DNA of 64,000 nucleotides, from contig CBDBIB010000001.1 in NCBI GenBank assembly GCA_965205945.1, positions 96,001 to 160,000 of the forward strand, given 5' to 3'. Made by a program: the position numbers and the translations under genes. The DNA is from Bdellovibrionales bacterium (GTDB lineage Bacteria > Bdellovibrionota > Bdellovibrionia > Bdellovibrionales > UBA1609). The notes beneath the pieces were generated by a model that had not been told where the DNA came from, made no database searches, and saw only the letters and a program-made list of their open reading frames with translations. Shown piece after piece: positions 13,879-31,163 of the stretch. The first letter of the stretch is position 1; each line of letters begins with the position of its first letter.

Positions 13879-14305
13879 TGTCCGTCCTGACAGATAATTT
13901 ACATTTTAACAAGAAGAGTTTGAGAAATTTATGAAAATCTATAATTATGAAGCCCCCATGAAGGGATAAATAATAAATACCCCTGTAAAGCTTATAGACT
14001 GTCTGTAAGAGAGTACAAAAAGCCTGAGCCTTTTTTATACTACCCCTTCCATGATAAAACCATTAGAGTGACTCAATATGGAAGAGTTTGTACTAAAAAC
14101 TTAAAGGTGAGTTTATCAAGGGCTTTTGCAGGGGTGGAGGCAGGAGTTAAGGAAATGGAGGACGGGTAATTAGTTTTTTAGATTATGATTTAGGATATTT
14201 TGATGATAAAAATAAACGAGTGGAGCAAAGCCGATCCTTTTGGTTTAGGAAAAGTGTAAACCATGTCTCCGATATATTTTGTAAACCATGTCTCGGGTAT
14301 GGACC
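13879..14305 (+). mobile_element. IS481-family remnant (internally deleted, frameshifted transposase C-terminus)
   Basis: Left end TGTCCGTCCTGACA; broken translation QEEFEKFMKIYNYE/PHEGINNKYP...YPFHDKTIRVTQYGRVC..VSLSRAFAG..GVKEMEDG*/DYDLGYFD; right end with two GTAAACCATGTCTC repeats ending TGGACC. Confidence 0.85.
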
Positions 14306-14323
14306 TCTGGACCTACTTGAAAA

Positions 14324-14400
14324 TGGGGCGATCGACGGGGCTTGAACCCGCGACAACCGGAATCACAATCCGGGACTCTACCAACTGAGCTACGACCGCC
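14324..14400 (-). tRNA. tRNA-His (GTG)
   Basis: GGCGGTCGTAGCTCAGTTGGTAGAG...TTGTGAT...GGTTCAAGCCCC...CGCCCCA; G-1:C73 and encoded CCA. Confidence 0.97.
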
Positions 14401-14552
14401 ATAATAAACTTGAAAGAAAAACCTAGTGTAAATCTATAAAATGAGCAAGCAAAGATTCTTAATATGTGATGATTCAAATTTGATCTTAGAGTATCCTGAA
14501 AAATTAGCAATTAGCCTTTAACTGTCTATAAACTTCTACACATTAAATACAG

Positions 14553-15362
14553 TTATAATACTAAAGCCACCCTTTGTCCTTTCTTTAATACCACAGGTGG
14601 AATTTCTTCACCTTGCTTATTTAAAAAAAAGTATAGTGACAAAGCATTTAACAGAGCTTCAAAATTTCCTTTATTTTTAATTAAACTTTCTTTATCTTCT
14701 TCATAAAGAAAAAAGTCTTTTTCAATTTTTTTTAAAAAAAATCTTCGGTTATCCTCTTTCATTTTTGATTTATAAAAATTTTTTAACACAGATTTTCTTA
14801 AACCGTATTTTAAACCAATTCTCCATAAAGACACCTTTGGAAAAGTTTCAATAAATTTAACTCTTTTAAGGCCTTTAACTAAAAACTGTCCTCTACCATA
14901 AAAAGAGGATCTACTTGACCCAAATGCAGGCTCTAAAGGAAACTTTTCCTCAAGTAAATTCGCCACATAATAGTCTAAAGCTCTTTCTAAATAAGGTGAT
15001 GGTATTTTTCTACCCTTAAAAGAGGTTAAACTTAATTTATTAGCTTTTTTGTATTCTCTTACAAGCCACTTAACCTCCATAACCTTACAGGCGTTCACTC
15101 CTGGGCAAAGCTTCTCACACCCAATACATGGAGGGGAAAAAAGAGGAAAGTTTACCCCTACAGCTTTAACTCCCTTATAAGATAAAATTTGTTTTTTTAA
15201 CAGCTCATCTGGATAATAATCTAATTTAGAATTTTTAAAATCATCAGTTATATTAGAAAGAACAACCTTATTATGGCCTTTATACTTTTCTAAGACTAAA
15301 AGACTACTCTTATCTTTTTTAATGCCACTTAAATTTAACCCTAAATACAATTCTTTTTTCAC
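14553..15362 (-). CDS. Hypothetical protein, DUF429-like (RNase H fold) with CxxC cluster
   Basis: N-terminal LGLNLSG strand, PPCIGCEKLCPG...C, IETFPK; translationally coupled to the kinase gene. Confidence 0.55.
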   Translation of the reverse strand: MKKELYLGLNLSGIKKDKSSLLVLEKYKGHNKVVLSNITDDFKNSKLDYYPDELLKKQILSYKGVKAVGVNFPLFSPPCIGCEKLCPGVNACKVMEVKWLVREYKKANKLSLTSFKGRKIPSPYLERALDYYVANLLEEKFPLEPAFGSSRSSFYGRGQFLVKGLKRVKFIETFPKVSLWRIGLKYGLRKSVLKNFYKSKMKEDNRRFFLKKIEKDFFLYEEDKESLIKNKGNFEALLNALSLYFFLNKQGEEIPPVVLKKGQRVALVL

Positions 15363-16364
15363 CTAAGAACCTATAAGCTGAAATGGAAGAACTAAGATTT
15401 TTTTATTAAGTAATGATTCTTGTACTATTTTCTTATCTCTAGGGTCATGAAGCACTAAAACACAACCCCCACCGCCAGCTCCACAAATTTTTAAAGATAA
15501 AACTTTATCAATAGTCATTAAATATTCTAAAAAAACATTTAATTTTGAGCTAACATAGAATTTTGAAACTTCTTTTCTTGCTAAAAGTTCTTGTTTAAAA
15601 CACTTTGAGAGTTCACTTAAGTTTTTAGATTCAACAGCTTTTTTAGTCTCAATTGAAATTCTAGCTATTTTGTTAAGAGAGTTTTCTACTTTTAAGTCCT
15701 TATCAATATACTCTTTTAATATATTCCAATTATTTATCCCTGAATGATGCTTAATCTGAGAATCTACTATCGTTATACAATCTTTCCAATAACTTAAAGA
15801 TTTACTCATATCAGATCTTATAAACCCTGATGTTTTATATTCAATAAAATTAAAACCCTTTTTAATAGGTGAAAAATAATCTTGAATACCTGCAGGAGTT
15901 TGAAGCACTTTAGATTCAATATTTCTAGCTGCTTCCACAATACTTTTTTCAGTATAATCCTCTTTATTAACACTAAATAAAACTTTAAGAATTGAAATAA
16001 GTAAGCTTGAACTTCCACCAAGTCCTGAGCCTGTTGGAGATTCAGATTTTATATGCCATTTTCCAACACCATTTTTTTTATTATCTAAAACAGAGAATGC
16101 CTCCTGCAACAAAGATAGTTTAATGTCTTTGGTTTTTAAAAAACTGTTTAACCCTAAAAATTTAAAGTTTTCTTTAAAATCAGGACTTTGAACAAAGATT
16201 GTCATTTCATGTCCTTGCTCAAAAATAACTGACGTGTAACAGGAAATTGAGCAGTTCACGGTAGATGCATTAGGAACTAAGGCTGATAATGGCCAAAGAT
16301 CTAGAGTTCCTCCTGCTAAATCAACTCTTGTTGCAGACTTTGATTTAAAAGTTCTTTGAATCAT
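15363..16364 (-). CDS. GHMP family sugar kinase
   Basis: TRVDLAGGTLD, PTGSGLGGSSS, GIQDY, KICGAGGGG. Confidence 0.92.
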   Translation of the reverse strand: MIQRTFKSKSATRVDLAGGTLDLWPLSALVPNASTVNCSISCYTSVIFEQGHEMTIFVQSPDFKENFKFLGLNSFLKTKDIKLSLLQEAFSVLDNKKNGVGKWHIKSESPTGSGLGGSSSLLISILKVLFSVNKEDYTEKSIVEAARNIESKVLQTPAGIQDYFSPIKKGFNFIEYKTSGFIRSDMSKSLSYWKDCITIVDSQIKHHSGINNWNILKEYIDKDLKVENSLNKIARISIETKKAVESKNLSELSKCFKQELLARKEVSKFYVSSKLNVFLEYLMTIDKVLSLKICGAGGGGCVLVLHDPRDKKIVQESLLNKKILVLPFQLIGS

Positions 16365-17719
16365 CTACTCACTTCTTCATTAAATTTAAATTTAAAAATA
16401 TCATTTATCTCTTGCTCTAATGCTATGGCATAAGCCTTTTGAAGTTGATTTGTTGAAATTAAAACACATTGTTTTAATTGACTTTCTTCCTTACACTTAA
16501 TACTTTGCCCTATGGAGTATCTTACAAGATTTTTTTTATTCTTTATAAGGTAAATTCTTTTTTTTGCACTTTTAAAAATAATTTTTTTATCTGAAATAAA
16601 TCTTTTATAATTTATCTCCTTAAGTTTATTTAAAAACATAAAAACTCTTGCTCCATTAAAACTATCCTGTTGTTTTTCATTCTTACCTAAAACCCAAATA
16701 TTATCCTTAAATTTAAATGCTTTAGACTTCTCTCCTACTCTTATAGTAAGTTGATCAATATCTCCATTAGGCGTATTTCCATCAATGTCTTTAAAAGACC
16801 TTAAATCTAGTGGGTCAACTATAAGAGCGTTTTTAGCTGTTTTATCTACACTAAGAGTATGCTCAGATCTATAACTTGAAACCGCATAACCTTTTTTATA
16901 AAAATTTAAAGAAAGCTCCTCTCCTGTATCTGTGTTTATAACAAGACTTGAAATTTTATCTTTTAAATCCACCTTTTTCTCACTAAAGCCCTCATGTAAA
17001 TAAGTTTTTAACTCCTGTATATATGAATTTACTTTTGCCTCATCAAAGTTCCAACTTTTAAAATCATTAGATCTCCATATGTCTTCTTTAATTAAAGATA
17101 AATACATTTTCCCTTTTTTATAAAAAGAGATCTTTTTAGGAAGACTTAAAGGATATGGCACCTCCCAGTTAAAAAGCTGTAAACTCCTTAAGCTCTCTAT
17201 CTTTTTAGAAAAAACATCTTTCCACTCATTACTTGAAGAATACAGTTTTTCTGTTTCCTTAAAACCTACCCTTAAATAAGTACTCCCATCAAAAGCCTCT
17301 TTTTCTGAAAGTTGAACAAGAGTTTTTTCTCCTGAATCTGTAATATACACTATTTTATTTAATTCCTTATCTAAAGAAAATTGAGCCCAATTTAAAGGTT
17401 TTTCCCCATCACTAAGGTTTCGCCCTTCTTGAGAAAGCCCTTTTGAAACCCATTCCTCTGTCACTCTATAGTTTAGATAATCTGTATATGGAGAAACTAT
17501 TTTCCATATGAACTTTTTTTTATCTCTTTCTAAAATATAATTCTTAAATTTAACTTGTTTGATTTGATTTGAACCAAATTGTACAACTCTGCTCTGATTT
17601 TTTTTAGTCTCCTCTTCTTTTTGAAACTTTTTAATCTCTAAAACAGTCAGCACAGCAATAAATGAAACAATTATAGCAAAAACAACAGTTTTTATAAAAT
17701 CTTTTTTTAAAATACGCAT
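16361..17719 (-). CDS. DUF4340 domain membrane-anchored protein
   Basis: N-terminal TM, repeated WKIVSP/W...LRS units; follows the GldG-like gene. Confidence 0.7.
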   Translation of the reverse strand: MRILKKDFIKTVVFAIIVSFIAVLTVLEIKKFQKEEETKKNQSRVVQFGSNQIKQVKFKNYILERDKKKFIWKIVSPYTDYLNYRVTEEWVSKGLSQEGRNLSDGEKPLNWAQFSLDKELNKIVYITDSGEKTLVQLSEKEAFDGSTYLRVGFKETEKLYSSSNEWKDVFSKKIESLRSLQLFNWEVPYPLSLPKKISFYKKGKMYLSLIKEDIWRSNDFKSWNFDEAKVNSYIQELKTYLHEGFSEKKVDLKDKISSLVINTDTGEELSLNFYKKGYAVSSYRSEHTLSVDKTAKNALIVDPLDLRSFKDIDGNTPNGDIDQLTIRVGEKSKAFKFKDNIWVLGKNEKQQDSFNGARVFMFLNKLKEINYKRFISDKKIIFKSAKKRIYLIKNKKNLVRYSIGQSIKCKEESQLKQCVLISTNQLQKAYAIALEQEINDIFKFKFNEEVSR

Positions 17720-17723
17720 TTAA

Positions 17724-19283
17724 TCACGCACCTCTTTTTCTAAACCATAAAATAGCGGCAATAATTAGTAAAACTAAAGGAATTAATATTGGGAAAATTA
17801 ATACAAAGGCAGAATTAGCAGTAGTCAGTACAAGTTTTGTATTTGTTGCAGTTCTTGGTCTAATAGAAATTAAATTTGTTTCACCTAAAAGATAGGCAAA
17901 GGTATTTAATGCTAAATCTTTATTAAAACCTATATCAAAATAAGTATCCGTCATAAAATCACTGTCCCCAAAAACAGCTACTAAAAACATAGGCTGCTCA
18001 TCACCTTCTTCATGATCATCTTTAAAGGTTCCTGTTACAGTCATAGCTACAACTGCTGCTTCTGGTTTTTTACCCTTAACTTCTGTTTGGTAATTTTCTA
18101 GATTTTGTACTGGAATAATTATAGGAGGTGTTTTAACCATTTCACTAATTCTAAATTTTGAGTCTTCTTTTTTAAGGCTTGAAGCTTCATAAAAAAGAGT
18201 TATTGCATTTTCATCAATATCTTTAGTAATTAAATTAGAGCGATCAAACTCTTGTCCTAAGACAGACAAAGCATCTGCTCCAGTCACTGTCTGTGTTGCG
18301 AGTAAGAAATTTTTCTTACTTATTATACCCACATCTTTAGAAAGTTCATTAAGGTTACTTTTTTGTGATGGATCTGATGCTAAAAGTAGTTTTCCTCCAT
18401 GAGCTATATATTTTTTTAAACTTAAAATCTCTTTTTGAAGCAGTGCTTTTTTAGGTCCGAGTATTGCAACCATTGCAGCATCTTTTGGAACCTGTGAAAA
18501 TTGAAGCAAGTTTAACTCTTTTATAACAAGTCCTTTAGCCCTTAAAGAGTCCGCTAATAAAAAAACTCCATCTCCTTCTTGTAAAGGTTTTTTTAGATTT
18601 CTTTCACCATGTCCTGTTAAAAAATAAACTTTTTTAGAATCTGTCTGTTTAAGTCTAAATAAAGCTGACGTTATAGTTTCCTCGCCCACAGGCTCCCTCA
18701 CCCGTTCAATTCGCCCTCCTTGCTTTAAAAAAACAACAATCTTTCCTTGATCTTCTCTCTTTAAAACTTGAGATGATGTTGGATCTTTATGGGCGTCAAC
18801 AAAGAAAGTTTTAATTTTTGAGCTTTCTCTTAAGTATTTTTTAAATAAAAGTTTAAGCCCTATATTTTGACCAGCATGTGCTTTTCCCTGATAATAAACT
18901 TTAAATTCAACATTTGTATCTAAAGAGTCTAAAATCTCTAAGCTTTGTAAGGATAAAGAGTTAATTTTATCCTTTGTAATATCCACAGATTTATCATAAC
19001 GAAATGCAAAAAAGTTCGTACATACATATAGGACAAAACCTAACAACATAAGTGTCCCCATATTCATTCCATATTTAGTTGTTCGCATTGAGAAAAACTC
19101 TAGTATTATTTTATAACTAAAAACCATTGCTCCAAAAAATAACACCAATGCGGTAAAGAATAAATATTCAGAATAAATAATCCAATCATTTAAAAAAAGC
19201 CTTGGAACACCAATAATGATAAGAATGAACCCACAAAAAAGAAATAGTCCTTTAGAGTAATTTTCTAATTTCATACAGCCCAC
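17724..19283 (-). CDS. gldG: GldG-family ABC transporter auxiliary protein
   Basis: DITKDKINSLS, VYFLTGHGER, VFGDSDF, C-terminal TM. Confidence 0.85.
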   Translation of the reverse strand: MGCMKLENYSKGLFLFCGFILIIIGVPRLFLNDWIIYSEYLFFTALVLFFGAMVFSYKIILEFFSMRTTKYGMNMGTLMLLGFVLYVCTNFFAFRYDKSVDITKDKINSLSLQSLEILDSLDTNVEFKVYYQGKAHAGQNIGLKLLFKKYLRESSKIKTFFVDAHKDPTSSQVLKREDQGKIVVFLKQGGRIERVREPVGEETITSALFRLKQTDSKKVYFLTGHGERNLKKPLQEGDGVFLLADSLRAKGLVIKELNLLQFSQVPKDAAMVAILGPKKALLQKEILSLKKYIAHGGKLLLASDPSQKSNLNELSKDVGIISKKNFLLATQTVTGADALSVLGQEFDRSNLITKDIDENAITLFYEASSLKKEDSKFRISEMVKTPPIIIPVQNLENYQTEVKGKKPEAAVVAMTVTGTFKDDHEEGDEQPMFLVAVFGDSDFMTDTYFDIGFNKDLALNTFAYLLGETNLISIRPRTATNTKLVLTTANSAFVLIFPILIPLVLLIIAAILWFRKRGA

Positions 19284-20042
19284 CTATCTCCATCTAGACG
19301 ACTCAACTACTCTTTGAGTCAGAAAACAAAAAATACATATAGTTGATATAAAAAATATAATCCCGCTTGTTTCAATAGTTCCATTAAAAAAATCTTGAAT
19401 ATGTAAAACCATTGAAAGCTGTTCAACTAAAGATGACCAAAACGGATGTGTAATCGAACCTGATAATGATCCGGCTAACATAATTCCTAAAATCATCAAC
19501 ACCCCTAAAAACACAGCCATAATACTTGAAGCCGTTAACGAAGAGGCAAATAAACCAATAGCACAATTTACCCCCATCATTAAAAACATTCCTAAATAAC
19601 TACCGACTAAAGGCCCATAGTCAAAATTTGTAATCAAATCTATTGAAAGAGGGTATAAAAGAGCTAGAAAAAGAAGCATTGAAATAACTACCCATGAGGC
19701 TAAAAATTTTCCTATTACTATTTCTACAGATGTGATTGGTGCCGTTAACAAAAGATCTATTGTTTTTTCTTTTTTTTCTTCAGAAAAAAGCCTCATTGTA
19801 ACTAACGGTGTTAAAAATAACATAATTAAATACACTAGATTTAAATGCGCCATAAAAACACCCATATGAATATTCCCACCTCCACCCATAGCTGCTGGCA
19901 TTGATGCTTTTTGGGCAAATGTAAACATACCTGGTAAAAACCGTGCACTCAAAAATACAGTAAATATGAATGCTAATAAGTAAAACATCGAACTAGTAAA
20001 GTAGCTTTTCAATTCTTTTTTAAAAATTAATATAATCTTCAT
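19284..20042 (-). CDS. gldF: GldF-like ABC-2 permease
   Basis: KKELKSYF, TMRLFSEEK..TIDLLLTAP, C-terminal ESSRWR. Confidence 0.85.
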   Translation of the reverse strand: MKIILIFKKELKSYFTSSMFYLLAFIFTVFLSARFLPGMFTFAQKASMPAAMGGGGNIHMGVFMAHLNLVYLIMLFLTPLVTMRLFSEEKKEKTIDLLLTAPITSVEIVIGKFLASWVVISMLLFLALLYPLSIDLITNFDYGPLVGSYLGMFLMMGVNCAIGLFASSLTASSIMAVFLGVLMILGIMLAGSLSGSITHPFWSSLVEQLSMVLHIQDFFNGTIETSGIIFFISTICIFCFLTQRVVESSRWR

Positions 20043-20057
20043 TTTTTTTAATCCTAT

Positions 20058-20978
20058 TTAATTTTTTGATGTCAATTCTAAGAAAATATCTTCAAGCCTT
20101 TCTGTAAAGACTTCCATGCCGATTAAACCCATTCCACTCTCAACTACTCTTAAAGAGAGCTCTTCTAAAGAATCATCCCCACCACTTAAATCCACATGAA
20201 GGTGCTGCCCTGCAAAGCTAGACATTTTTACAAACTCTAACTCTTCTAAAACTTTTGAAAATTGATCCTTTACTCTTTGAACTTTAATTTTAACTCTTCT
20301 AACTCCTCCTGTTGTCCTTTGAGAAAGTGCTTGAAGACTATCTTGAGCCACAATACACCCTTCATTAATAATCACAACTCTTTGGCATAATGCTTGGACT
20401 TCAGAAAGAATGTGAGTTGATATAATAATAGTATGTTTGCCCTTAAGTTCTTTTAATAATTCTCTAAAGTCTGCTGATTGACTTGGGTCTAAACCTACTG
20501 TGGGTTCATCTAAAATCAAAACTTCTGGATTTGAAACCACAGCCTGTGCTATTCCAACTCTTTGCCTAAACCCTTTTGAAAGATTTCCTATCACTCTATG
20601 TCTAACATCTAAAAGGTTTAAGCTGTCTAAAGCTTTATCCACCGAGGAAGAAAGGTTGTCTTTTTTAACACCACGAAGCTTAGCAACGAAAGCTAAATAC
20701 CTTTCAACTTTCATATCCATATATAAAGGGGGCTTTTCAGGAAGGTATCCAATTTGATTTTTTGCTAGTATTGGATTCTCAAAAATATCAACACCACCAA
20801 TTTTAACTAAGCCTGAGGTTGGAGCCATAAAGCCTGTTAAAATTTTCATAGTTGTAGTTTTACCCGCTCCATTTGGTCCTAAAAACCCAACAACTTCACC
20901 AGCATTGACCTGAAAATTTAAATTTGTAATAGCAGAACGCTCGCCATAAAGCTTTGTTAAGCCCTTAACTTTTATCAT
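20058..20978 (-). CDS. gldA: GldA-like ABC transporter ATP-binding protein
   Basis: [29 protein letters not shown]. Confidence 0.88.
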   Translation of the reverse strand: MIKVKGLTKLYGERSAITNLNFQVNAGEVVGFLGPNGAGKTTTMKILTGFMAPTSGLVKIGGVDIFENPILAKNQIGYLPEKPPLYMDMKVERYLAFVAKLRGVKKDNLSSSVDKALDSLNLLDVRHRVIGNLSKGFRQRVGIAQAVVSNPEVLILDEPTVGLDPSQSADFRELLKELKGKHTIIISTHILSEVQALCQRVVIINEGCIVAQDSLQALSQRTTGGVRRVKIKVQRVKDQFSKVLEELEFVKMSSFAGQHLHVDLSGGDDSLEELSLRVVESGMGLIGMEVFTERLEDIFLELTSKN

Positions 20979-21015
20979 TTCTCACCTCACACATTAACAA
21001 CAGTAGCAAAATTAT

Positions 21016-21045
21016 AAAAGCCAAGTAGTTTTTATTGGCTTTTTT
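21016..21045. terminator. Hairpin, probable intrinsic terminator
   Basis: AAAAGCCAA-N10-TTGGCTTTT with T/A runs, downstream of the NFACT gene. Confidence 0.5.
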
Positions 21046-21130
21046 AAAATCAGCTTAATTTTATATTAAGATATTCTTCAGTCAACGAGCTTTATTAATG
21101 CATTTTTAGCAGTTGTGCTTAATATCTAGA

Positions 21131-22345
21131 CTAATTTTTAATCTCCCATTCATAAAGCCTTGTCTTTATTCTACTTGGCTGAACCAAACCATTTTTTGCA
21201 CTCTTAACAGATTTTACAAATTTAACTTCTGTAAAAATAACTTCAAATTTCACCCTATTTACTGAATGGAGTTTTTTAGGTGCTGCAGTCTTAAATAAAA
21301 ACAAGCCACATTGTTTAAGATCCTTTTCAGAAATTTTATAATTTTTAGGGATATCTAAAATCAAATGTCCTGAAGGGTAATCCTTTAAATGCATCCAAAT
21401 ATACCAAGATTTAGCCTTTCTTAAAAGCTCCATATTTTCTTTTGCTGATTTACCACAAAAAGCTCTAATCTCTTTTGAAATTTCTAAGAACCTTAACACC
21501 CTTGCTTTATCAGTCTTACTTTTTAAAATTTTTAAATTTTTTTTAACACTAGTTTTTTGTGCAAGCTCTATTAATCTTTTTTCAAGCCTCTTTATTTTAA
21601 CATCTTTTAGTTTTTGCTGTTTATAGCCCCATTCTATATTTTCTCGTAAGCTTAATTTTTTCTTATAAAGACCTTCTAAATCTCTTACAAGTTTAGTTTC
21701 ATTTACCAAAAACTCTGAAAAACGCTTATAACCATCTGATCTTAAAAATTTTAATCCCTCTTTAATTTTCATCTTAGCAGTTGCAATTTTATCAATTTGC
21801 CTTTCTATCTGTACATCATCGTTTTTGACTCTTAGAAAATCTAAACCCTGCTTGATAATTACATCTGGACTTCTTATTGCCTTAGGAAAGTAATTCTCAC
21901 TTAATTTAGAAAGAAGTAAGGGCTTAGCCCAGTAAACTTGTTTCCCTTTTTTAACTGCTGTTAGATTCAAACCACCTGGATAAGCTCTAAATTCAATATA
22001 AAATTCAGTACTATTATTAAAATAAAATCTTATAAGACGACCATATTCTTTAATACGTTGAATATTTGTAAGTGATGAGCCTTTAAAGTGTGTATGTAAG
22101 AATAAGTTTAAAGGTCTTTTCTTTGCTTTATTTAATAAAATTGTATTTAAAGGGGTCTCTTTTTTAAAGGCTAAAAAAAACGGTGTATTCAAAGAAAGAT
22201 TAAACAACAACCATATAACACCCCTATCCCAAAACTTTAACACTATAATATCTCTTAAACCTAGAACAGTTTGAAACTCTGCTCCTTTTAAAAAAGAAAC
22301 TGAATCTATCAAATAATCTAGTTCTGTTGTATTTAAAACTTTCAC
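21131..22345 (-). CDS. NFACT RNA-binding domain protein (RqcH/DUF814-like)
   Basis: C-terminal GKSAKEN..L..WMHLKDYPSGH NFACT-R motif. Confidence 0.8.
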   Translation of the reverse strand: MKVLNTTELDYLIDSVSFLKGAEFQTVLGLRDIIVLKFWDRGVIWLLFNLSLNTPFFLAFKKETPLNTILLNKAKKRPLNLFLHTHFKGSSLTNIQRIKEYGRLIRFYFNNSTEFYIEFRAYPGGLNLTAVKKGKQVYWAKPLLLSKLSENYFPKAIRSPDVIIKQGLDFLRVKNDDVQIERQIDKIATAKMKIKEGLKFLRSDGYKRFSEFLVNETKLVRDLEGLYKKKLSLRENIEWGYKQQKLKDVKIKRLEKRLIELAQKTSVKKNLKILKSKTDKARVLRFLEISKEIRAFCGKSAKENMELLRKAKSWYIWMHLKDYPSGHLILDIPKNYKISEKDLKQCGLFLFKTAAPKKLHSVNRVKFEVIFTEVKFVKSVKSAKNGLVQPSRIKTRLYEWEIKN

Positions 22346-22633
22346 AGAGTTTATTTTATACGTTCAACGACCTAATGAGCAAGACTCAACATTGAATCCA
22401 AACTAGACTTATACTTACTCCATATTGCTTATAAAGACGCCCAGCCTACATAAAGATTTTTTTTAGAAACTTAAGAAGAAACTAAAGAGCAAAAATCTTA
22501 AATAGTCTAGGTCAAAAATAAATTCATAGATTTTAACCTCTAGCTTTTAGTCAGAAATAACTTTGTCTCAAAACAAAACAACTAAGGGCTGTGCTTTCAT
22601 AGGTGAAAAAGTGTCTCAAATTAAACCGTCTTC

Positions 22634-22661: not shown

Positions 22662-22667
22662 AAATCA

Positions 22668-23579
22668 GTGAGTTCAAGAAAAAAAGAAAACACAGTATTA
22701 AAAAATAGTGAGGATTTTTCATCAAAGATTCTTAATAAAGAATTGCATCAAACATTAGACAATTCTAAGAACAATAGCGCTGAGGAATTTTTAAAAACTT
22801 TAAAATATGAAATGGAACAAGTTCAAACTCTAGAAAAAAAGAAAAAGAATAAGACTGATAAAATTTCTAAAAAATCTAAGACTCAGGAGTTTGATGATAA
22901 AACGACTGCTTTAAATAAAGAGGTGCAATCTACACAAGATTTTGAAAATGTGACCTCTTTAGAAAATGTAAAAGCCGGAGTTATTCAACACAGCATTCAA
23001 CGAAACCCAGAAATTGACTTAAAAAATGCAGATTACATTAGATTTGCTCAAGAAAAAATCAAAAAACTTGAAAAAGAAATAAGTAATTTTAGAACTGAAA
23101 CTCAAGATCTTGCGCTTGCAGGTGATCACTTTAAAGCTTTAGCTGAAAAACGTGAGTTTTTAATAAAAAATGTGGAAATGAAAACTCAGACATTAGAGAG
23201 TACGTTTAAAGAGGAAAAAAAAATCTTAAACGAGACTTTAAATGCAAAGGAAATTAAAATTAAATCTTTACAAAACAAAATAGAAAACCTTGAGGAGGAA
23301 CTAGAATTTAAGTATAACAGACTTCGAGTTAGAGAAAGAGAGCTTGAAAGCAGACTTGAAATACTCAAACAAGAACAAGGTGCTGTGACAACGAGTAAAG
23401 ATAATATGATTTTGAGGATAAAAAAACAAAACAATGCACTTTCTGCAGATTTAGAAAGAGCAAGATCACAGACTCAAAAAACATCAACAAAGCTTCAAGA
23501 AAAAGAAGATGCTTTAAGAAGAACTATTAAGGCTTTAAAGCTTTCTTTAACTATGTTAGAAAGCCAAAAGCACAAATAG
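22668..23579 (+). CDS. Coiled-coil hypothetical protein
   Basis: Long heptad-rich ORF (RVRERELESRLEI...LRRTIKALKLSL). Confidence 0.7.
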   Translation: MSSRKKENTVLKNSEDFSSKILNKELHQTLDNSKNNSAEEFLKTLKYEMEQVQTLEKKKKNKTDKISKKSKTQEFDDKTTALNKEVQSTQDFENVTSLENVKAGVIQHSIQRNPEIDLKNADYIRFAQEKIKKLEKEISNFRTETQDLALAGDHFKALAEKREFLIKNVEMKTQTLESTFKEEKKILNETLNAKEIKIKSLQNKIENLEEELEFKYNRLRVRERELESRLEILKQEQGAVTTSKDNMILRIKKQNNALSADLERARSQTQKTSTKLQEKEDALRRTIKALKLSLTMLESQKHK

Positions 23580-23613
23580 TAATTTAAAAACGATTAATGG
23601 AGTAAATCTATAA

Positions 23614-24705
23614 ATGGAAAATCTATCAAAGGTTAAGCTTGTTGTAAGTGATCTCCATTTTGGGACAGGCTTGCAAAATGAGGATGGAACCCATAATACT
23701 CTTGAGGAATTTTATTTTGATGAAAAATTTTCGGAATTTTTAGAATATCAAGGAAGTACAAAGTTTAAAGATATTGAGGTAGAGCTTATATTAAATGGGG
23801 ATATTTTTAATTTTTTACAAATAGACTATAAGGGACACTTTGTTCCTGTGATCACAGAGGCCATGAACCTTGATATGTTAGATAGAATTGCTAAAGGACA
23901 TCCAAAAATTTTTAAAGCTTTAAAAAGTTTCGCCTCCCTTAAAGGCAAATCAATTACATATATTACAGGAAATCATGATCAAGGAATTTTGTGGCCTAAA
24001 GTTCAAGATAAACTTAATGAGCTTTTAAAGACGCAAGTTAAATACTGTCAATTAGTTTATTACTTTGATGGAGTTCATATTGAACATGGCCATATGCATG
24101 AAACTGCAAATAGAATGAATCCTAAAAAGTTTTTCCTACGAAAAAACTTACCAGAGCCTATCTTAAACCTTCCTTTTGGATCACATTTTTTCATAGATTT
24201 TATTCTAAAGATTAAACAAACTTATCCGCATATTGATAAGGCAAGACCTTTTAAAAAAATGATTCGATGGATGTTATTTAATGAAGCAATATTTTTATTT
24301 AAAAGTCTATTTCAAATGTTTAAGTACTTTTTTTTAAGTGCCTTTAGTTCAAAGACTTACAGGAATACTTGGTCTATTAAAACTTTAATAAAAATAATTT
24401 TAGAAAATGCAATTTTTCCAGATTTATCTGATAACGCAAGAAGCCTTTTAAAGGATGAGCGTGTTCATACGGTGATATTTGGCCACTCCCATGTATATCA
24501 ATACAGACAGTGGGGTCAAGGTAAGGAGTATTTTAACACAGGAACTTGGACTGATATTGTTTCTCTGGATATAAGTCTTTGGGGCAAGATAACTAAACTT
24601 ACTTATGTTGAAATTGGTTACAGGATGGATAACTCTAGACCAAGGGGAAGACTTAGAGAATGGAGAGGACATCATCGTATTGAAGAAGACGTTATAATTT
24701 GCTAA
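23614..24705 (+). CDS. Calcineurin-like metallophosphoesterase
   Basis: SDLH, NGD, GNHD, EHGH, GHSH, NTGTW motifs. Confidence 0.92.
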   Translation: MENLSKVKLVVSDLHFGTGLQNEDGTHNTLEEFYFDEKFSEFLEYQGSTKFKDIEVELILNGDIFNFLQIDYKGHFVPVITEAMNLDMLDRIAKGHPKIFKALKSFASLKGKSITYITGNHDQGILWPKVQDKLNELLKTQVKYCQLVYYFDGVHIEHGHMHETANRMNPKKFFLRKNLPEPILNLPFGSHFFIDFILKIKQTYPHIDKARPFKKMIRWMLFNEAIFLFKSLFQMFKYFFLSAFSSKTYRNTWSIKTLIKIILENAIFPDLSDNARSLLKDERVHTVIFGHSHVYQYRQWGQGKEYFNTGTWTDIVSLDISLWGKITKLTYVEIGYRMDNSRPRGRLREWRGHHRIEEDVIIC

Positions 24706-24758
24706 AAATCCTGCTTATTTAAGTTGATATCTAGAAAAAAAATAGTAGAATATTTTGC

Positions 24759-25679
24759 ATGTCTAATAGCAATGAAGATTTAGAAAAAACAAGCGTTTTA
24801 ACAAGTGAAACTTTAAAAGTAATTTTAAATGATGCTAATAAAGCTCCTGCGACATTAGTTTTATTAGTAGGACCAGCAAGTAGTATTGGCAAGCAATGGC
24901 AGTTATCAGGAGAAAACTTAATAGTTGGGCGCTCTCCTAGTAATTCAATTTATATTGATGACAGGTCAGTTAGTAAATCACACGCAAAATTTGTTTTAAC
25001 AGGAAACGATACTCTTATTATGGACTTAGAATCTACGAATAAAACAATTATTAACTCCCAAGCAATACCACCTTTAATAACTGTGAAGCTTAAAAATAAT
25101 GACCAAATAAAAGTAGGAAATGTTATTTTTAAATTTTTAGAAAGAGGAAATATTGAGACTATTAGTGCTCAAAAATCCTTTGACAGATCTCAATTAGATG
25201 CTTTAACAGGGGCTTATGATAAAGGGGCTTTATTAGCTTATGCACCAGAAGCTATTAAAAGATCAGATCTTATAAATATGCCATTAAGTTTAATTATTTT
25301 TGATATCGATCATTTTAAAAAAGTGAATGATACTTACGGGCATGTATCAGGCGATTACATTCTTAAAGAAATTGCAAGACTTGTAAAAGATAAACTCATT
25401 AGAAGTGAGGATTTTTTTGCAAGATTTGGTGGCGAGGAATTTGTTTTAGTCTTACTGGCAACTGATATTACTATTTCTGCAAGTATCGCTGAAAGAGTTA
25501 GAGCTACTATTGAGGCTTATACTTTTGATTTTGAAAAAATTAAAATACCCATAACAATTTCTGTTGGGGTGGCAGTTAGAAAGTCTAATGGAATAAGTTG
25601 GGATAAGCTTTTTGATAAAGCTGATGCCGCTTTATATAAATCTAAAAACAGAGGTAGAAACCAAGTTTCAATTGGCTAG
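24759..25679 (+). CDS. dgcB: FHA-GGDEF diguanylate cyclase (DgcB-like)
   Basis: FHA (GRS..SVSKSHA..DLESTN), GGEEF, I-site RSED, N-terminal LEKTS tail. Confidence 0.88.
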   Translation: MSNSNEDLEKTSVLTSETLKVILNDANKAPATLVLLVGPASSIGKQWQLSGENLIVGRSPSNSIYIDDRSVSKSHAKFVLTGNDTLIMDLESTNKTIINSQAIPPLITVKLKNNDQIKVGNVIFKFLERGNIETISAQKSFDRSQLDALTGAYDKGALLAYAPEAIKRSDLINMPLSLIIFDIDHFKKVNDTYGHVSGDYILKEIARLVKDKLIRSEDFFARFGGEEFVLVLLATDITISASIAERVRATIEAYTFDFEKIKIPITISVGVAVRKSNGISWDKLFDKADAALYKSKNRGRNQVSIG

Positions 25680-25768
25680 TATTAAAGTAGACTTATTGCT
25701 TAAGATACAATCTCATAAGTATGAAAATAAAGTTGATTTTAAAACCTAAACAAACTACACCCACCAAA

Positions 25769-26179
25769 GAACTTGTAAATTAAATTGTGTCACTGCTTAA
25801 CAATGTACTAGGATTAAGCATCCTAAGGAGCAAGCAGAATGAACATAGAAGAAATAAGCAAAGAACTTACTAAGAACGTAAAAATACGACTCTTCTTAGC
25901 ATAGGCGCAGCTACTATTACAGCCTCCAAAGGAGGAGACAATCGTTATGAAGCAATCAGTGATGACTATACACTCTTTATTGTTATATGTGCAACAACCG
26001 GATAAACATGAATATTTATATGTTAATAGCTGACTTTGCCCATTTTTCATAAAATTTGAGTTTAAGTCCTCTTAAATTTTTAAAATCCACTTCATCCTGA
26101 TACCTGTGATTTTTAAATTCTCAATTTTGAATTTTAAAAATCTTAAAAACCGCAGTCACACAAAATAAATTACAGACTC
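25769..26179 (+). mobile_element. IS256-family internally deleted element (MITE)
   Basis: 28-bp imperfect terminal IRs (25769-25796 vs 26152-26179, 21/28 match); after the left end, SD AAGGAG and MNIEEISKELTKNVK resembling an IS256 transposase N-terminus. Confidence 0.75.
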
Positions 26180-26191
26180 AATTATAAATAG

Positions 26192-27472
26192 TCATAACCA
26201 GTTAAGTGAATCTAGAGAAAATAGTAATCCTATGATTTCTTCTCGCTGATCATTTTGATTGTTTTTGTAATTTTTAAATCCATAATACAACTTAAATTTA
26301 AGATTTAAATTATAACTTTTAAATACCCTACCTCTTTTTAAATCAATAAACCCAATATAACCAAGGCTTCCTTTTGGCTTTATTCTATTAGATCCAGCTA
26401 AAGGAAGGCTTAATTTTAAACCAAACCTTGAAGACCATTTTTGTGTTTCAAACCATTTATATTTTGCTCTTAAAGACACACCAAGCATAAAAACATCTAT
26501 TAGCTTCACCTGAAAATTATTTTCATATATAAAGGAGGTCTGATGATAATCTAAATCAAAGCCTAAACCCCATCTATTTTTTTCATAATCTGAAACCAAA
26601 GAGAACTGTAAAAGACTTGGAGTTTTGTTATCCCAAGTAAAAGTTGGACTAAGTTCTGGTTCATAATTTTGAATATGATAAGATCCATTTACTCCTAGCC
26701 AAAAATCCTTATGTTTTAATTGATACTGAGCCTCTATATTATAATTTCCTCTAGAAACCCATTTAGCCTTATTACTAGTTCCCCGATCAGTTGAAACAAG
26801 AATATTATTATAAACTCCAAGGCCTACATAATGCCTATTTTGATAAATATTTATTTTACGTTCTTTTTTTCCCAAAGATTCTTCTTGTTCTGAGTATTTA
26901 AACGACTCTGTGTTACTTTCTTCATTTAAAGAAAGCCCCTCCTCTTCTTCATCGTGTATTGTAGTGTTAACTGGTTGAGAGTTAGAATCCTTTTTTAAGG
27001 TTTCCTCATAATTATTGTTATATAAATTATCTTCTTCCTCTACTTTAACTGACTCAGTTATATCGTCACTCTGTATAGGCACCATTTTTTCATTTTTTAA
27101 TAAGCTCTCCATTTCACTCGCTGTTCCACTTATAATTTCTGCTCTTCTTTTTTCAGCATTAGAGCGATTCTGTGACTTATCTTCTCCATAAAAAAAGATT
27201 TTAATCTTAGATTCTTCCACTCCATATTCAGAAATTAGCTCTTGTTTTACAGTTTCGGCTCTTTTATAACTTAAATGCTTATTGTAAGACTCATCACCTA
27301 TTAAATCAGCATATCCTCGGATAAAAAAGATGTCTTCTGGCTCAAAGTTTTTTAATTTAAAAGAATTTAAAAAATCCTCTGATACATCAAAAGCAAAATA
27401 AACGTTTTGATGTGTTTGATAAGCAAAACACGGTTGTAAAATCAAAGAAAACAAAGCTACATATTTTAACAC
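26192..27472 (-). CDS. OmpA-like domain protein with C-terminal putative beta-barrel (paralog 1)
   Basis: GYADLIG..YNKHLS.KRA..VK and RRAEI OmpA motifs; acidic linker; alternating aromatic strands; ends LNWL. Confidence 0.8.
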   Translation of the reverse strand: MLKYVALFSLILQPCFAYQTHQNVYFAFDVSEDFLNSFKLKNFEPEDIFFIRGYADLIGDESYNKHLSYKRAETVKQELISEYGVEESKIKIFFYGEDKSQNRSNAEKRRAEIISGTASEMESLLKNEKMVPIQSDDITESVKVEEEDNLYNNNYEETLKKDSNSQPVNTTIHDEEEEGLSLNEESNTESFKYSEQEESLGKKERKINIYQNRHYVGLGVYNNILVSTDRGTSNKAKWVSRGNYNIEAQYQLKHKDFWLGVNGSYHIQNYEPELSPTFTWDNKTPSLLQFSLVSDYEKNRWGLGFDLDYHQTSFIYENNFQVKLIDVFMLGVSLRAKYKWFETQKWSSRFGLKLSLPLAGSNRIKPKGSLGYIGFIDLKRGRVFKSYNLNLKFKLYYGFKNYKNNQNDQREEIIGLLFSLDSLNWL

Positions 27473-27737
27473 AATAAAGTCCTTTCTAAATTAATACCGG
27501 TATATTACACAAATACCTTTACATTATGAAATGCTTCCGTATGTTTTTTAAAACAAAATTTAAGAAACTCCTAACTTTAAGACTTTAGCCTTAGAAAATA
27601 AATAATAACTGCAATAAATTTCATCAATAGTAGCTTAAAAAATATTTAAAATATCTAAACCCTTTTAACCATTAAAATAAATCATAAATAAGAGCTTTAA
27701 TTAGTTTTAAAAATTTTATGAATTTTAAAACCCTGCC

Positions 27738-29054
27738 TTACAGCAAGTTTGCAGCCAACTCTGCAAGCTCTGATCTTTCACCTTTGGTAAGATTAATGTG
27801 TGTAGCAAGTTTTTGTCCTTTAAACTTTTCAACAGAGTAAGAAAGTCCTGAATTCACAGCATCAAGGTATGGATTATCAATCTGATAACGATCGCCTGTT
27901 AAAACAACTTTTGTTCCAGCACCGGCTCTTGTCACAATTGTTTTAATTTCATGGGGAGTTAAATTTTGAGCCTCATCTACAATCAAATATTGATTAGGAA
28001 TACTCCTACCCCTGATGTAAGTTAAGGGCTCAATGTTTAACATTCCTTGATTAATAAGTTCTTGCGCACGACCGGCAGCTTTTTTATCTGCTCCCATTAA
28101 GAATTCAACGTTATCAAATATAGGCTGCATCCAAGGGTTTAGTTTTTGCTCAACATCTCCTGGAAGATAACCAATGTCCTTACCCATAGGAAAAATTGGA
28201 CGACTTACTAAAAGCCTTTGAAACCTTCCCTCATCAAGAGTTTTTGAAAGCCCGGCAGCAAGGGCAAGTAGAGTCTTACCTGTTCCAGCTTTACCAACTA
28301 AAGATACAAACAAAATATCATCATTTAAAAGCGCATCTAGAGCAAAGCTTTGCTCTACATTTCTAGGGTGAATTCCCCAAACACTATCATTAGGGGTAAT
28401 TAAAGGAATTATAGCGTTAGCCCCTAAATCATACCTACCCACGGCAGAATGATTCACATTAGATTCATCTTTTAATATAACATACTGATTTCCAAAAATT
28501 TTAACTTCTGGGGGTAGAATTAAAGATTTTTCTTTATAAAACAAATCAATTTTTCCACTTGAAACTATCAATTCACAACGACCTGAATAAAACTCTTCAG
28601 TCCCTAAAAGCTCTTCACCATCGTAATCACTTGCTTTAATACCAAAAACATCAGCTTTAATTCTTAAATTTATATCTTTTGTAATGAGTTCTACATCATC
28701 AAATTGTCTTTGAAGAGTTAAAACCGCCCCTAGAATTCTATTATCAGCTTTTTCAAAACTAAGTTCTGAAGGAAGGCCCACTTCATTTTCCATACCAGAT
28801 TTTACAAAAATTCTTGTTTTACTATCTTCTAAATAAACACCCTCTGAAAGCTTTCCCTTACTTCTTAAAACATCAATAAATCTACTAAACTGCCGAGCAT
28901 TACGCCCATTTTCACCTAGATCTTTTTTAAAACGATCCACTTCTTCAATTACAGACATTGGAATATAAAGATCGGACTCATGAAACTTCTGAACAGAGGA
29001 TGAATCAAATAAGATTACATTTGTATCAACTACAACTTTTTTAGAAAATTTCAA
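27738..29054 (-). CDS. phoH: PIN-PhoH (PhoH2-type) ATPase
   Basis: VVDTNV PIN, GKAGTGKT, YIRGRS, DEAQN. Confidence 0.93.
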   Translation of the reverse strand: MKFSKKVVVDTNVILFDSSSVQKFHESDLYIPMSVIEEVDRFKKDLGENGRNARQFSRFIDVLRSKGKLSEGVYLEDSKTRIFVKSGMENEVGLPSELSFEKADNRILGAVLTLQRQFDDVELITKDINLRIKADVFGIKASDYDGEELLGTEEFYSGRCELIVSSGKIDLFYKEKSLILPPEVKIFGNQYVILKDESNVNHSAVGRYDLGANAIIPLITPNDSVWGIHPRNVEQSFALDALLNDDILFVSLVGKAGTGKTLLALAAGLSKTLDEGRFQRLLVSRPIFPMGKDIGYLPGDVEQKLNPWMQPIFDNVEFLMGADKKAAGRAQELINQGMLNIEPLTYIRGRSIPNQYLIVDEAQNLTPHEIKTIVTRAGAGTKVVLTGDRYQIDNPYLDAVNSGLSYSVEKFKGQKLATHINLTKGERSELAELAANLL

Positions 29055-29180
29055 CTAAAAGCTCCCCCTTTGAAAACAAAAAAACTTATCCTAAGCTTAC
29101 TTGATATTATCTCCTTAAAGAGATGCATAAGTTAAGAACCGCTGCATTAATAATATTATATTTTTTTTACTGACTTTAAA

Positions 29181-29696
29181 TTACTTGCTAAGCATAATAT
29201 CGCCTAAATCTGTCTTTAAACTCGTGCTCACTGTCTCCATAAAACTAATAAAGTAATGGATAGCTTCTTGATTAAGAGTGCCTTCTAAAAATTTAGCACC
29301 ATGCCTATAAATTCTACCTTTCTTAATGAAACGAGTATTTGTTATTGTAGCTGATAATGGAAAATACGTTGTATGGTTTAAATAAACCCTAACCACAGTT
29401 TTTTCGCCTTTTTTAAATTTACCATATTTTTCTAAAATATCAAAAGCTATGCCTCCACGAGAAATATCATTTAAAGCCACCTTTACAAGCCCACTACCTG
29501 GAACAACCATTGAAGCACTTATAAACTCAGTTAAAAGTGTTCTCTTAACTCTCCTTCTTTCTTCTGTGATCATCGCTTTTCGAAGCTTTGATATTGATTC
29601 AACATCTGCACCTAAAGAGGTGACCTCTTTATTAGAAGCTTTTATACCCTCTTTTAAAAAATCTTTAATTTGGATCACATTATCACTAGTAGACAT
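29181..29696 (-). CDS. PilZ domain protein
   Basis: RRRVKR (RxxxR) and DISRGG (DxSxxG); ATG 29696 with GGGGG SD. Confidence 0.85.
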   Translation of the reverse strand: MSTSDNVIQIKDFLKEGIKASNKEVTSLGADVESISKLRKAMITEERRRVKRTLLTEFISASMVVPGSGLVKVALNDISRGGIAFDILEKYGKFKKGEKTVVRVYLNHTTYFPLSATITNTRFIKKGRIYRHGAKFLEGTLNQEAIHYFISFMETVSTSLKTDLGDIMLSK

Positions 29697-29716
29697 ACTC
29701 TTCCCCCTTTGATTCA

Positions 29717-29744
29717 ATATCGGGGTATGACTATTTCAACTTTA
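29717..29744 (-). promoter_or_regulatory. Putative sigma28 promoter of the PilZ gene
   Basis: TAAAG-N15-CCCGATAT on minus strand. Confidence 0.65.
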
Positions 29745-30734
29745 ATCAATATCTGGCCTCTTTCTCTAATATTACTTCTCTCAGGCTGCCAACTTCCATA
29801 TTTAGTTTCAGGAGCCTTTGAGCAATCTAGAATTCTAGGTTCTCGGCAAAAAATCACAAAAGCTTTCCAAAATGTTGCAATATCTAACAAAACTAAAGAC
29901 AAGCTTCGCTTTTCTTTAAAAGCTAAAGACTTTGCCTTGGCAAATGGGCTCACCTGTAAGGATAATTTTAAAACCTACGTAGAACTTAATCGCCCCTACG
30001 TAAGCTATCTTGTTATAGCCTCTAAAAAAAATAAAATTGATCCTAAAAAATGGTGGTTTCCCATCGTTGGAAGCTTCCCCTACAAGGGTTATTTTTCAAA
30101 AGAAAAAGCCAAATCTGCAGCTCTTAAATTACAGGCTAAAGATTATGATACTTACATAAGGGGGGTTAATACGTATAGCTCTCTTGGATGGTTTAATGAG
30201 CCTATTTTATCTAGCATGCTTAAACATAGCAAATATAGCCTTGCTGAAACAATATTTCATGAGTGTGTTCATACTACTTTTTTCATCAAAAATAATACTG
30301 AAGTAAATGAGCGTAGTGCTGTTTTTTTCGCACATCATTTTATGATAAAATTCTTAAAAGATTTAAATAATCTAAAACAAAAAAAACACAAGCTCTTATC
30401 ATGGAAAGAGTCTAAAAAATTCACTTCATTTCTAGAAAAAACAATCCTTAACGCCATTAAATACTATGATTCAAATACCGACAGAAAAGCTCTTTTTAAA
30501 AGTATAAAAAAAAATTATTTAAAACATTTAAAACCTGAAATAACCATAAATAACTATGACCATGTGTTCTTAATAAATCTAAATAACGCAAAACTTGCAG
30601 CTTTTAAGACTTATTTTCATAAATTCGATAAGCTTGAAAATAATTTAAAAAATAAATTTTCTGATGATATTTTTGTATATCTTAGAAAAATCAAATCTCT
30701 AAAAACTAAAGAAGCAAAATTATCTCTCCTTTAG
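29727..30734 (+). CDS. Predicted lipoprotein aminopeptidase (DUF2265-like)
   Basis: Lipobox LLSGC, WWFPIVGSFPYKGYF, YSSLGWFNEP, HECVH zinc motif; start refined to ATG 29727. Confidence 0.85.
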   Translation: MTISTLINIWPLSLILLLSGCQLPYLVSGAFEQSRILGSRQKITKAFQNVAISNKTKDKLRFSLKAKDFALANGLTCKDNFKTYVELNRPYVSYLVIASKKNKIDPKKWWFPIVGSFPYKGYFSKEKAKSAALKLQAKDYDTYIRGVNTYSSLGWFNEPILSSMLKHSKYSLAETIFHECVHTTFFIKNNTEVNERSAVFFAHHFMIKFLKDLNNLKQKKHKLLSWKESKKFTSFLEKTILNAIKYYDSNTDRKALFKSIKKNYLKHLKPEITINNYDHVFLINLNNAKLAAFKTYFHKFDKLENNLKNKFSDDIFVYLRKIKSLKTKEAKLSLL

Positions 30735-30748
30735 CTTTCCCAGGCCCT

Positions 30749-31067
30749 TTTCCTTCCTGACATAGTCTACAAATTATACCGAAGATATAATTTACACTCT
30801 CCTAGAAAATAGACATTTTGTCCGTCCTGACACACAGTTTACAATTTATACCGGAAACATGGTTTACACTTTCCTAGAAAGGAGGACTTAAAATGGCCTA
30901 GAAGGAAAGTAGTCCCGTAGTTCTGTAAGTCTCCGTCGATATGGAACGGATTTTGCTAGAGTGAAGGTAGCAATTAAAGAAATAAAGGATGGAATATGAG
31001 TAGTTAGTTTTTAAGATTATGATTTAAGATATTTTGATCATCAGAGTAAACCATGATAGTCTGGACC
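30749..31067 (+). mobile_element. IS481-family remnant with duplicated left end
   Basis: Degenerate left end 30749-30808, intact left end TGTCCGTCCTGACA at 30819, SD AGGAGG + MA*KESSP, C-terminal fragment VAIKEIKDGI*VVSF*DYDLRYFD, right end GTAAACCATG..CTGGACC. Confidence 0.85.
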
Positions 31068-31086
31068 TTATTAAGAAGAAAAAAAA

Positions 31087-31163
31087 TGGTAGCGGAAGAG
31101 GGACTTGAACCCCCGACACCCGGATTATGATTCCGGTGCTCTAACCAGCTGAGCTACCCCGCC
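31087..31163 (-). tRNA. tRNA-Met (CAT), elongator type
   Basis: GGCGGGGTAGCTCAGCTGGTTAGAGC...TCATAA...GGTTCAAGTCC...CCGCTACCA; paired 1:72, no initiator GGG/CCC anticodon stem. Confidence 0.92.

Follow-up and report, generated by a model that had tools for sequence, protein, structure and literature searches.

The window analysed here is a stretch of 64,000 nucleotides (nt) from a Bdellovibrionales bacterium (assembly GCA_965205945.1, contig CBDBIB010000001.1, positions 96,001 to 160,000 of the forward strand). It contains two degenerate sequences, called copy 1 and copy 2 below, which are located behind the 3′ ends of two transfer RNA (tRNA) genes, those of tRNA-His and tRNA-Met. We consider, at a probability of roughly 0.8, that both are dead, internally deleted copies of an insertion sequence (IS) of about 1.33 kb that carries a single gene, resembles the IS481 family and targets the DNA on the 3′ side of tRNA genes. 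Homing of this IS481-like subfamily had been proposed in a preliminary description of the window, and it is strongly supported by the position of intact relatives in other genomes.

Intact members measure about 1.33 kb and their ends enclose one open reading frame (ORF), which encodes a DDE transposase of 391 amino acids (aa) with two N-terminal helix-turn-helix (HTH) domains, an RNase-H-like core and a C-terminal β domain (aa 303–391) that holds the motif DYDLGYFD. The ORF is single and free of frameshifts, and the residues D149, D209, E252 and K259, the lysine being located seven residues past the glutamate, are invariant across 64 aligned intact relatives. The ends are inverted repeats of about 52 nt, each with two putative binding-site repeats 25 nt apart; left tips read TGTCCG..., TGTAGT... 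or TGAGCG..., and the right ends are their inverted match. The Pfam domains present in intact relatives are HTH_23/28/32, rve and rve_3. The best NCBIfam model is that of IS481 (NF033577), with 214.7 bits for protein P0002 and 208.6 bits for protein P0042 against a curated cut-off of 224, and IS3 is next at 104.8 bits (110 bits lower); the β domain falls outside the IS481 model, and the region covered by this model is missing from the window remnants. Relatives at 66–67% identity are labelled "IS481 family transposase" in RefSeq. An AlphaFold model of the 391-aa transposase (mean predicted local distance difference test score of 83.5) matches IstA, TnsB of the type V-K CRISPR-associated transposons (CAST), MuA and retroviral integrases. 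Terminal inverted repeats opening with 5′-TGT are a feature of the IS481 family that is mentioned in the review PMC11406308 as well.

The genome scan, in which each species was represented by one genome, comprised the best 80 of 571 relatives and 25 further loci from 201 genomes of the window's order, 105 loci altogether. Seventy-seven were usable, the others being duplicates (six), loci without a recognisable right end (11), loci with less than 40 nt of flank (nine) or too short (two), and 64 of the usable loci are outside the window's own clade. In 39 of these 64 a complete tRNA gene, convergent with the element, lies at 9–12 nt from the tip of the right end (19 at 9 nt, 17 at 10 nt, two at 11 nt and one at 12 nt), and these tRNAs represent 19 anticodon types. 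Another 11 loci have a 3′ fragment of a tRNA in the same register, and eight have only a TGG at 9–11 nt, L089 among them being plainly a partial tRNA. At one locus (L037) the tRNA is farther away, behind an array of right-end repeats, and at five there is none, L033 of these having a tRNA at its left end. Intact homologues of the DYDLGYFD type are, as the preliminary description had anticipated, not randomly placed with respect to tRNA genes. A replicate with metagenomes (best 80 of 595 matches, 64 of the 80 usable) gave 22 loci with a complete tRNA gene or transfer-messenger RNA (tmRNA) gene at 9–10 nt, 27 with a fragment whose T-arm is at 19–22 nt, three with TGG only, four with a target farther away and eight with none.

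Three complete chromosomes (G434, G435 and G436) were searched for every copy; pooled, 10 of 15 copies are at complete tRNAs and two at fragments. In G434 all five copies, which are 99–100% identical, lie at five different tRNAs, and a sixth, truncated copy is stacked before one of them. G435 possesses seven identical copies, of which four have their right end proximal to a tRNA and one has its left end 9 nt from a tRNA-Met, and in G436 one copy is found at a tRNA-Asp and two at tRNA-Asn fragments. Megaplasmids follow the same pattern: in pSymB of Sinorhizobium meliloti 1021 and pSK03 of Rhizobium leguminosarum a copy is located 9–10 nt from the tRNA-Arg(CCG) of the replicon. Across 301 Bdellovibrionota genomes, the 30 loci matching the IS481 model best served as a control, and a tRNA within 1.5 kb was present in 6 of the 13 with a DYDLGYFD-type C-terminus and in none of the 17 without it.

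The common orientation claimed for the two window copies is also conserved among the intact loci, where the right end faces the tRNA by about 50 to 1 in the clades that keep the 9–10-nt rule. The opposite orientation, with the left end toward the 3′ end of the tRNA, was seen in L173 (G262), L176 (G212), L198 (G435) and L144 (G078), and transcripts reading through from the tRNA would there enter the transposase gene in the sense direction; for L173 and L176 this orientation may be a subclade trait. At L037 (the same as L191, in G434), located before a tRNA-Gln, the inner 25-nt repeat of the right end has been multiplied in tandem to six or more units, as a result of which 216 nt separate the transposase gene from the tRNA, the last unit retaining a spacer of about 10 nt. 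On pSymB, the locus L153 (1313827–1317915) holds a 94%-length copy 10 nt behind the single tRNA-Arg(CCG) gene of the megaplasmid, a gene known to be essential; the PLSDB table lists no feature at this element. Genes for tmRNA are found as targets at 9 nt in L216 and at 113–148 nt in L015 and L207, both in or near the window's clade.

In the window, the remains of the two copies and the tRNA genes behind them are the following (G078 is a genome of the same genus that carries an intact element):

13879..13908, + strand: left end of copy 1, with only the outer putative transposase-binding repeat and the tip TGTCCGTCCTGACA; 92% match to positions 29–64 of the intact G078 element.
13910..14256, + strand: C-terminal transposase pseudogene of copy 1 (about aa 274–391), catalytic core deleted; found by tblastn with P0002 as query.
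14255..14305, + strand: right end of copy 1, two 21-nt direct repeats (14255–14275 and 14280–14300; repeat family D2, 90%) followed by the tip GGTATGGACC.
14306..14323, no strand: spacer of copy 1, 18 nt, opening with TCTGGACC; read from the sequence.
14324..14399, − strand: tRNA-His (GTG), intact; ARAGORN, Rfam 61.4 bits.
30748..30808, + strand: older duplicate left end of copy 2, relic of a stacked insertion; direct repeats D1 (49 nt, 82%) and D3 (15 nt, 87%) with the next left end.
30819..30892, + strand: left end of copy 2, with both putative binding repeats and an AGGAGG ribosome site; 87% match to positions 32–130 of the intact G078 element.
30893..30945, + strand: first transposase codons of copy 2, MA*KESS..., then a stretch that cannot be aligned; intact relatives start MAWRESSKM.
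30946..31050, + strand: C-terminal transposase remnant of copy 2 (about aa 341–377), DYDLRYFD; translation, tblastn and element mapping.
31043..31067, + strand: shortened right end of copy 2, one repeat and the tip TCTGGACC; inverted repeat I5 with 30858–30870, 92%.
31068..31086, no strand: spacer of copy 2, 19 nt; read from the sequence.
31087..31163, − strand: tRNA-Met (CAT), intact; ARAGORN, Rfam 60.9 bits.

What had been described from the letters alone was borne out. Both decayed copies share the left tip (13879–13892 and 30819–30832), which is also present in the intact relatives L017, L020, L022 and L093, and the homology of their transposase C-termini, DYDLGYFD in copy 1 and DYDLRYFD in copy 2, is confirmed by the translations. 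The left end of copy 2 resembles the inverted right end of copy 1 (82.7% over 52 nt); inside copy 2, the inverted match between its own ends is 13 nt long (92%). Tips ending in GGACC at 14305 and 31067 leave 18 and 19 nt to the CCA end of the tRNA, and the reading direction of the transposase converges in both copies on the 3′ end of the tRNA (tail-to-tail). ARAGORN gives exactly two tRNA genes in the window, both of them intact and both targeted.

With P0002 as the tblastn query, aa 274–292 and 289–391 were aligned to copy 1 at 64–74% identity; frameshifts and stops interrupt this pseudogene, whose translation spans ...FLDYDLGYFDDKNKRVEQ..., and the C-terminal remnant of copy 2 translates as ...VVSF*DYDLRYFDHQSKP. 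Searches with a 72-aa in-frame piece of copy 1 retrieved 391-aa proteins with HTH, rve and rve_3 domains at up to 79% identity (E 4e-30); the remnants are therefore real transposase relics, and the catalytic core is gone from both copies. The architecture of two repeats at the right end of copy 1 is found in about 70 intact relatives as well. The spacer of copy 1 consists of an 8-nt repeat of its own element tip (14306–14313) and 10 further nt, the latter equalling the usual spacer length of the family (9–10 nt). Duplications of the own right tip between tip and tRNA, of 8 nt in copy 1 and of 18 nt in L204, may be traces left by a stacked copy after its deletion. A simple terminator scan of the remnants found no terminator given to the tRNA by the right end.

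The genome to which the window belongs (1.87 Mb, 32.5% G+C, five contigs) has 34 tRNA genes and one tmRNA gene. Remnants were located in it by mapping the intact G078 element, which gave 10 sites, six of them abutting the 3′ end of one of these 35 genes. By our own arithmetic (35 genes × 30 nt / 1.87 Mb), about 0.0006 is expected by chance per site. Three of the six, at tRNA-His, tRNA-Met and tRNA-Ala(TGC), retain a right end, at offsets of 18, 19 and 27 nt, and the other three, at tRNA-Trp, a second tRNA-Met and tRNA-Asp, consist of a lone left end; in all six the transposase direction points toward the tRNA. The repeats behind six tRNA genes of this genome can be explained as decayed insertions. 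In the lone left ends the inner side, with the ribosome site and the first codons, runs directly into the tRNA, and at the joints AAAATGG(C) is common to the beginning of the transposase gene and to the A-run plus CCA of the tRNA; in G078 the counterpart tRNA-Met is joined at ATGGTT. These left ends would thus be deletions at short repeats that were halted at an essential tRNA. By comparison, the 12 copies of two other rve-type ISs in the same genome have their nearest tRNA at 560 nt to 102 kb, none being located at a tRNA. The single intact copy in G078 lies 43 nt from a tRNA-Gly, and 6 of the 16 fragment sites of that genome are within about 50 nt of the 3′ end of a tRNA. Comparison with the sister genomes G078, G082 and G170 yielded no alignable empty site for the window copies, the tRNA flanks being rearranged or too diverged.

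The mode of insertion was deduced from the junctions. Both tips were placed by gapped alignment and the flanks of 67 loci were compared. Resemblance between copies from the same genome ends at the tips, spacer and tRNA differing between them, and the 3-nt flanks at the predicted tip are identical in 22 of the 67 loci, compared with 2–10 at shifted positions and about one expected by chance; the shifted peaks, at −1 and +2, resemble misplacement of the tip. Therefore, the element moves by cut-and-join transposition with a 3-bp target duplication and not by recombination of the integrase type. Neither a long duplication of about 15 bp nor an insertion within a tRNA was seen, the tRNAs being intact. 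Moreover, in L046, L049, L051 and L077 an intact copy is preceded, 2–4 nt from its left tip, by an old right-end remnant, indicating that new arrivals insert between the copy already present and the tRNA; the doubled left end of copy 2 agrees with such stacking.

Target anatomy points to recognition of a conserved tRNA feature by the subfamily, as the preliminary description had suggested. The spacer holds less than 0.5 bit per position across 49 targets, the tRNA itself being the sole common sequence. Where CCA is not encoded (L059, L218, L260 and L269) the T-arm is still 19–20 nt from the tip, and the tmRNA targeted in L216 shares with tRNAs only the acceptor and the T-arm. Furthermore, identical transposases are found in the same genome at complete tRNAs and at promoterless fragments that lack the 5′ half (L054/L055, L088/L089 and L057/L064/L078). 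Because the register is the same in all these situations and the spacer is not conserved, the mark appears to be the DNA of the T-arm and acceptor, read by the transposase or its complex. An indirect targeting, in which the transposase is recruited by a factor bound to tRNA genes or transcripts (RNA polymerase at the terminator, a processing enzyme or an R-loop) or by an RNA that the element encodes, would have a parallel in the eukaryotic retroelements Ty3 and TRE5-A, which home to tRNA genes through bound factors, and a diffuse signal such as a terminator would fit the looser spacing in the window's clade. However, the use of promoterless fragments by those identical transposases, the T-arm register at CCA-less ends and the tmRNA target disfavour transcription or RNA as the signal; in addition, the element has a single ORF, and an Rfam scan of 13000–32000 detected the two tRNAs and no other RNA, none within the remnants. 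We therefore regard recruitment of this kind as unlikely.

Two further explanations deny that the element seeks tRNA genes at all. The remnants could be leftovers of islands that were inserted in tRNA genes by a tyrosine or serine integrase and carried this IS, the link to tRNAs belonging then to the islands. Transfer RNA genes are classic sites for islands, and the fragments beside the relatives, which stop at the anticodon loop as those left by islands integrating there do, resemble island attachment (att) repeats. Such fragments occur at 27 of the 64 metagenome loci (L213, L219, L222, L229, L239, L257, L273 and 20 more) and at 11 of the 64 genome loci (L042, L047, L054, L062, L064, L078, L081, L087 and L090–L092), and they would be of island origin. 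Their frequency indicates either that fragments are full targets themselves or that copies at live tRNA genes are lost faster. However, the tip of the IS lies 9–10 nt outside the tRNA, on the far side of the fragments and hence outside any island, and near-identical copies are present on one chromosome at five different tRNAs with 3-bp duplications of their own. In the window, the junctions are transposon tips, and neither a tyrosine or serine integrase nor flanking direct repeats of a tRNA 3′ end were found. No integrase is encoded between or beside the two tRNAs, among the ORFs spanning 12932–33529, and the genes between them (ABC transporter, GHMP kinase, FHA-GGDEF, PIN-PhoH and aminopeptidase) are ordinary, so that copy 1 and copy 2 are independent relics instead of the two ends of a single island. 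Two intervals separating a fragment from a complete tRNA were also checked; they hold no integrase, one SecB-like gene and other genes without a Pfam match. The island explanation is thus largely refuted and very improbable. Just as little credit can be given to random insertion followed by survival only behind tRNA genes, where the DNA is neutral, that is, to selection instead of targeting. The presence of only decayed copies in this genome would agree with it, as would the varying distances in the window's clade (15–189 nt) and its several duplication-bearing members elsewhere. Selection cannot yield, however, a register of 9–10 nt, a single orientation and the position of five out of five near-identical young copies at tRNAs, nor does it account for the absence from tRNAs of the other IS types of the same genome (0 of 12) and of canonical IS481 elements (0 of 17).

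Several observations weigh against homing by this element in the form presented here. Homing is not absolute, since two of the seven G435 copies are at other sites, with duplications. The 3-bp duplication shows up precisely at the predicted tip in no more than about a third of the loci, the partial tRNAs could be later truncations, and a host protein bound to T-arm DNA may be the actual reader. In G078, 10 of the 16 fragment sites are away from the 3′ ends of tRNAs. In the window's own genome, four of the ten remnant sites are likewise away from the 3′ end of a tRNA. No intact copy exists in that genome, where the 13 rve matches come from two other types of IS, and therefore nothing of this element is active there. 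A further point concerns the window's own clade. In a quick maximum-likelihood tree with midpoint root, which is a fast search only, the 12 closest relatives form a clade (Shimodaira–Hasegawa-like approximate likelihood ratio test, SH-aLRT, 99) nested among clades that keep the 9–10-nt rule, but none of the 12 is at 9–12 nt and there is no fixed offset. Six of them have a convergent tRNA or tmRNA at 29–189 nt and six have no complete tRNA within 400 nt, L029 among the latter showing a partial tRNA at 15 nt; two more of these six (L020 and L024) have 3-bp duplications at sites without tRNA. The window's clade keeps the association with the 3′ side of tRNA genes, and its ruler is loosened or blurred by decay.

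These data affect the offset that had been proposed for the element. A fixed offset does exist in the family, but it is 9–10 nt (T-arm start at 19–22 nt from the tip) and not 18–19 nt, and a fixed offset of 18 or 19 nt does not hold for the window's own clade. Given the loose spacing in that clade, the agreement between 18 and 19 nt is probably coincidence or decay and not the ruler of the family. The earlier interpretation is in this sense partly supported, being essentially correct for the family but mistaken as to the exact offset.

Homing of the element could be explained as follows. The transposase, or the assembled complex, would read the DNA of the universally conserved T-arm/acceptor block and use it as a ruler, so that the element is joined about 20 bp away and in one orientation, which would offer a harmless landing site in any genome. 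New copies stack between older copies and the tRNA, and spacing is relaxed in the window's clade. In the genome studied here all copies have decayed since, three of them presumably losing everything from the first codons to the tRNA by deletion at short repeats of the AAAATGG type. A broader formulation can be put forward tentatively, at somewhat less than even odds: one small DDE transposase, with no guide RNA or helper proteins, would read the T-arm/acceptor DNA of any tRNA or tmRNA gene and integrate at a distance of about two helical turns and in a defined orientation, and would thus be a bacterial counterpart of Ty3/TRE that arose within the IS481 family and is present in at least six phyla, the window's clade being a variant with a loosened ruler.

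Comparison with known systems shows both likenesses and differences. Members of the IS481 family (such as IS481 of Bordetella pertussis) have one ORF with HTH and a DDE core of the rve type, a length of about 1.3 kb and terminal inverted repeats starting with 5′-TGT, and all of this applies to the present element as well. In contrast to IS481, the latter scores just below the cut-off of the family model, has the distinct β domain at its C-terminus, carries two putative binding repeats per end, produces a 3-bp duplication and homes to the 3′ ends of tRNAs, a behaviour absent from the 17 canonical IS481-model loci. Target duplications of 4–15 bp are typical of the IS481 family, IS481 itself using NCTAGN (6 bp), and the 3 bp found here are outside that range. 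Tn7 and Tn7-like transposons (TnsD/TniQ), as well as the type V-K CASTs that home to tRNA genes, also insert shortly beyond a conserved gene, at a fixed distance and in one orientation, and they share the TGT ends with several transposase-binding repeats and the TnsB-like fold of the transposase. However, Tn7-like systems require TnsB, TnsC and TniQ, with or without Cas12k and a guide, and have one site each, whereas the element described here has a single 391-aa protein and accepts any tRNA species; no TnsC ATPase and no TniQ/TnsD gene is found inside it, about 1.33 kb with one ORF leaving no room for partner genes. The target duplication of Tn7 is 5 bp. A generic homing to all kinds of tRNA genes at a set distance, which provides safe landing in a gene-dense genome, is known from eukaryotic retrotransposons. 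The examples, Ty3 of yeast and TRE5-A, TRE3 and DGLT-A of Dictyostelium, differ in being retroelements; they work through RNA polymerase III factors and land mostly upstream. Integrase-borne islands and prophages have the same genomic address, but each recombines within a given tRNA, whose end it restores, while the present element leaves the tRNA untouched, is joined through a transposon tip flanked by a 3-bp duplication, and uses many tRNA species.

Of all steps in the movement of simple insertion sequences, the choice of a target is the one that is understood least. To our knowledge, precise homing in bacteria requires extra proteins or RNAs (Tn7, CASTs and the bridge RNAs of IS110) or a sequence-specific integrase. 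If the reading is right, a one-protein element able to locate all tRNA genes through a feature they have in common would solve the problem of safe landing in a new way. It would also explain many "transposase next to tRNA" annotations that are now taken as island scars, it would provide a compact system for studying how a DDE transposase measures the distance from a bound site, and a portable landing site behind tRNA genes that needs no guide RNA could result. For this genome the meaning is more modest, namely a group of dead relics. A description of homing to tRNAs by elements of the IS481 type was not found in the literature covered, which included PMC5994717, PMC2864759, PMC3339403 and PMC11406308 but neither ISfinder nor most subscription journals; the data point to a branch of IS481-like elements that homes to tRNAs, is widespread and has apparently not been described.

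Two minor points remain. A resemblance of the element tip (GGAATGGACC) to the T-loop (GGATTCGAACC), judged by eye, was dropped because the tip varies between clades. Outside the window, the same small genome carries eight near-identical copies (L005–L012) of a different rve-type IS of 365 aa as well as IS3-type copies; all of these look as if they had been active recently, and none is near a tRNA.

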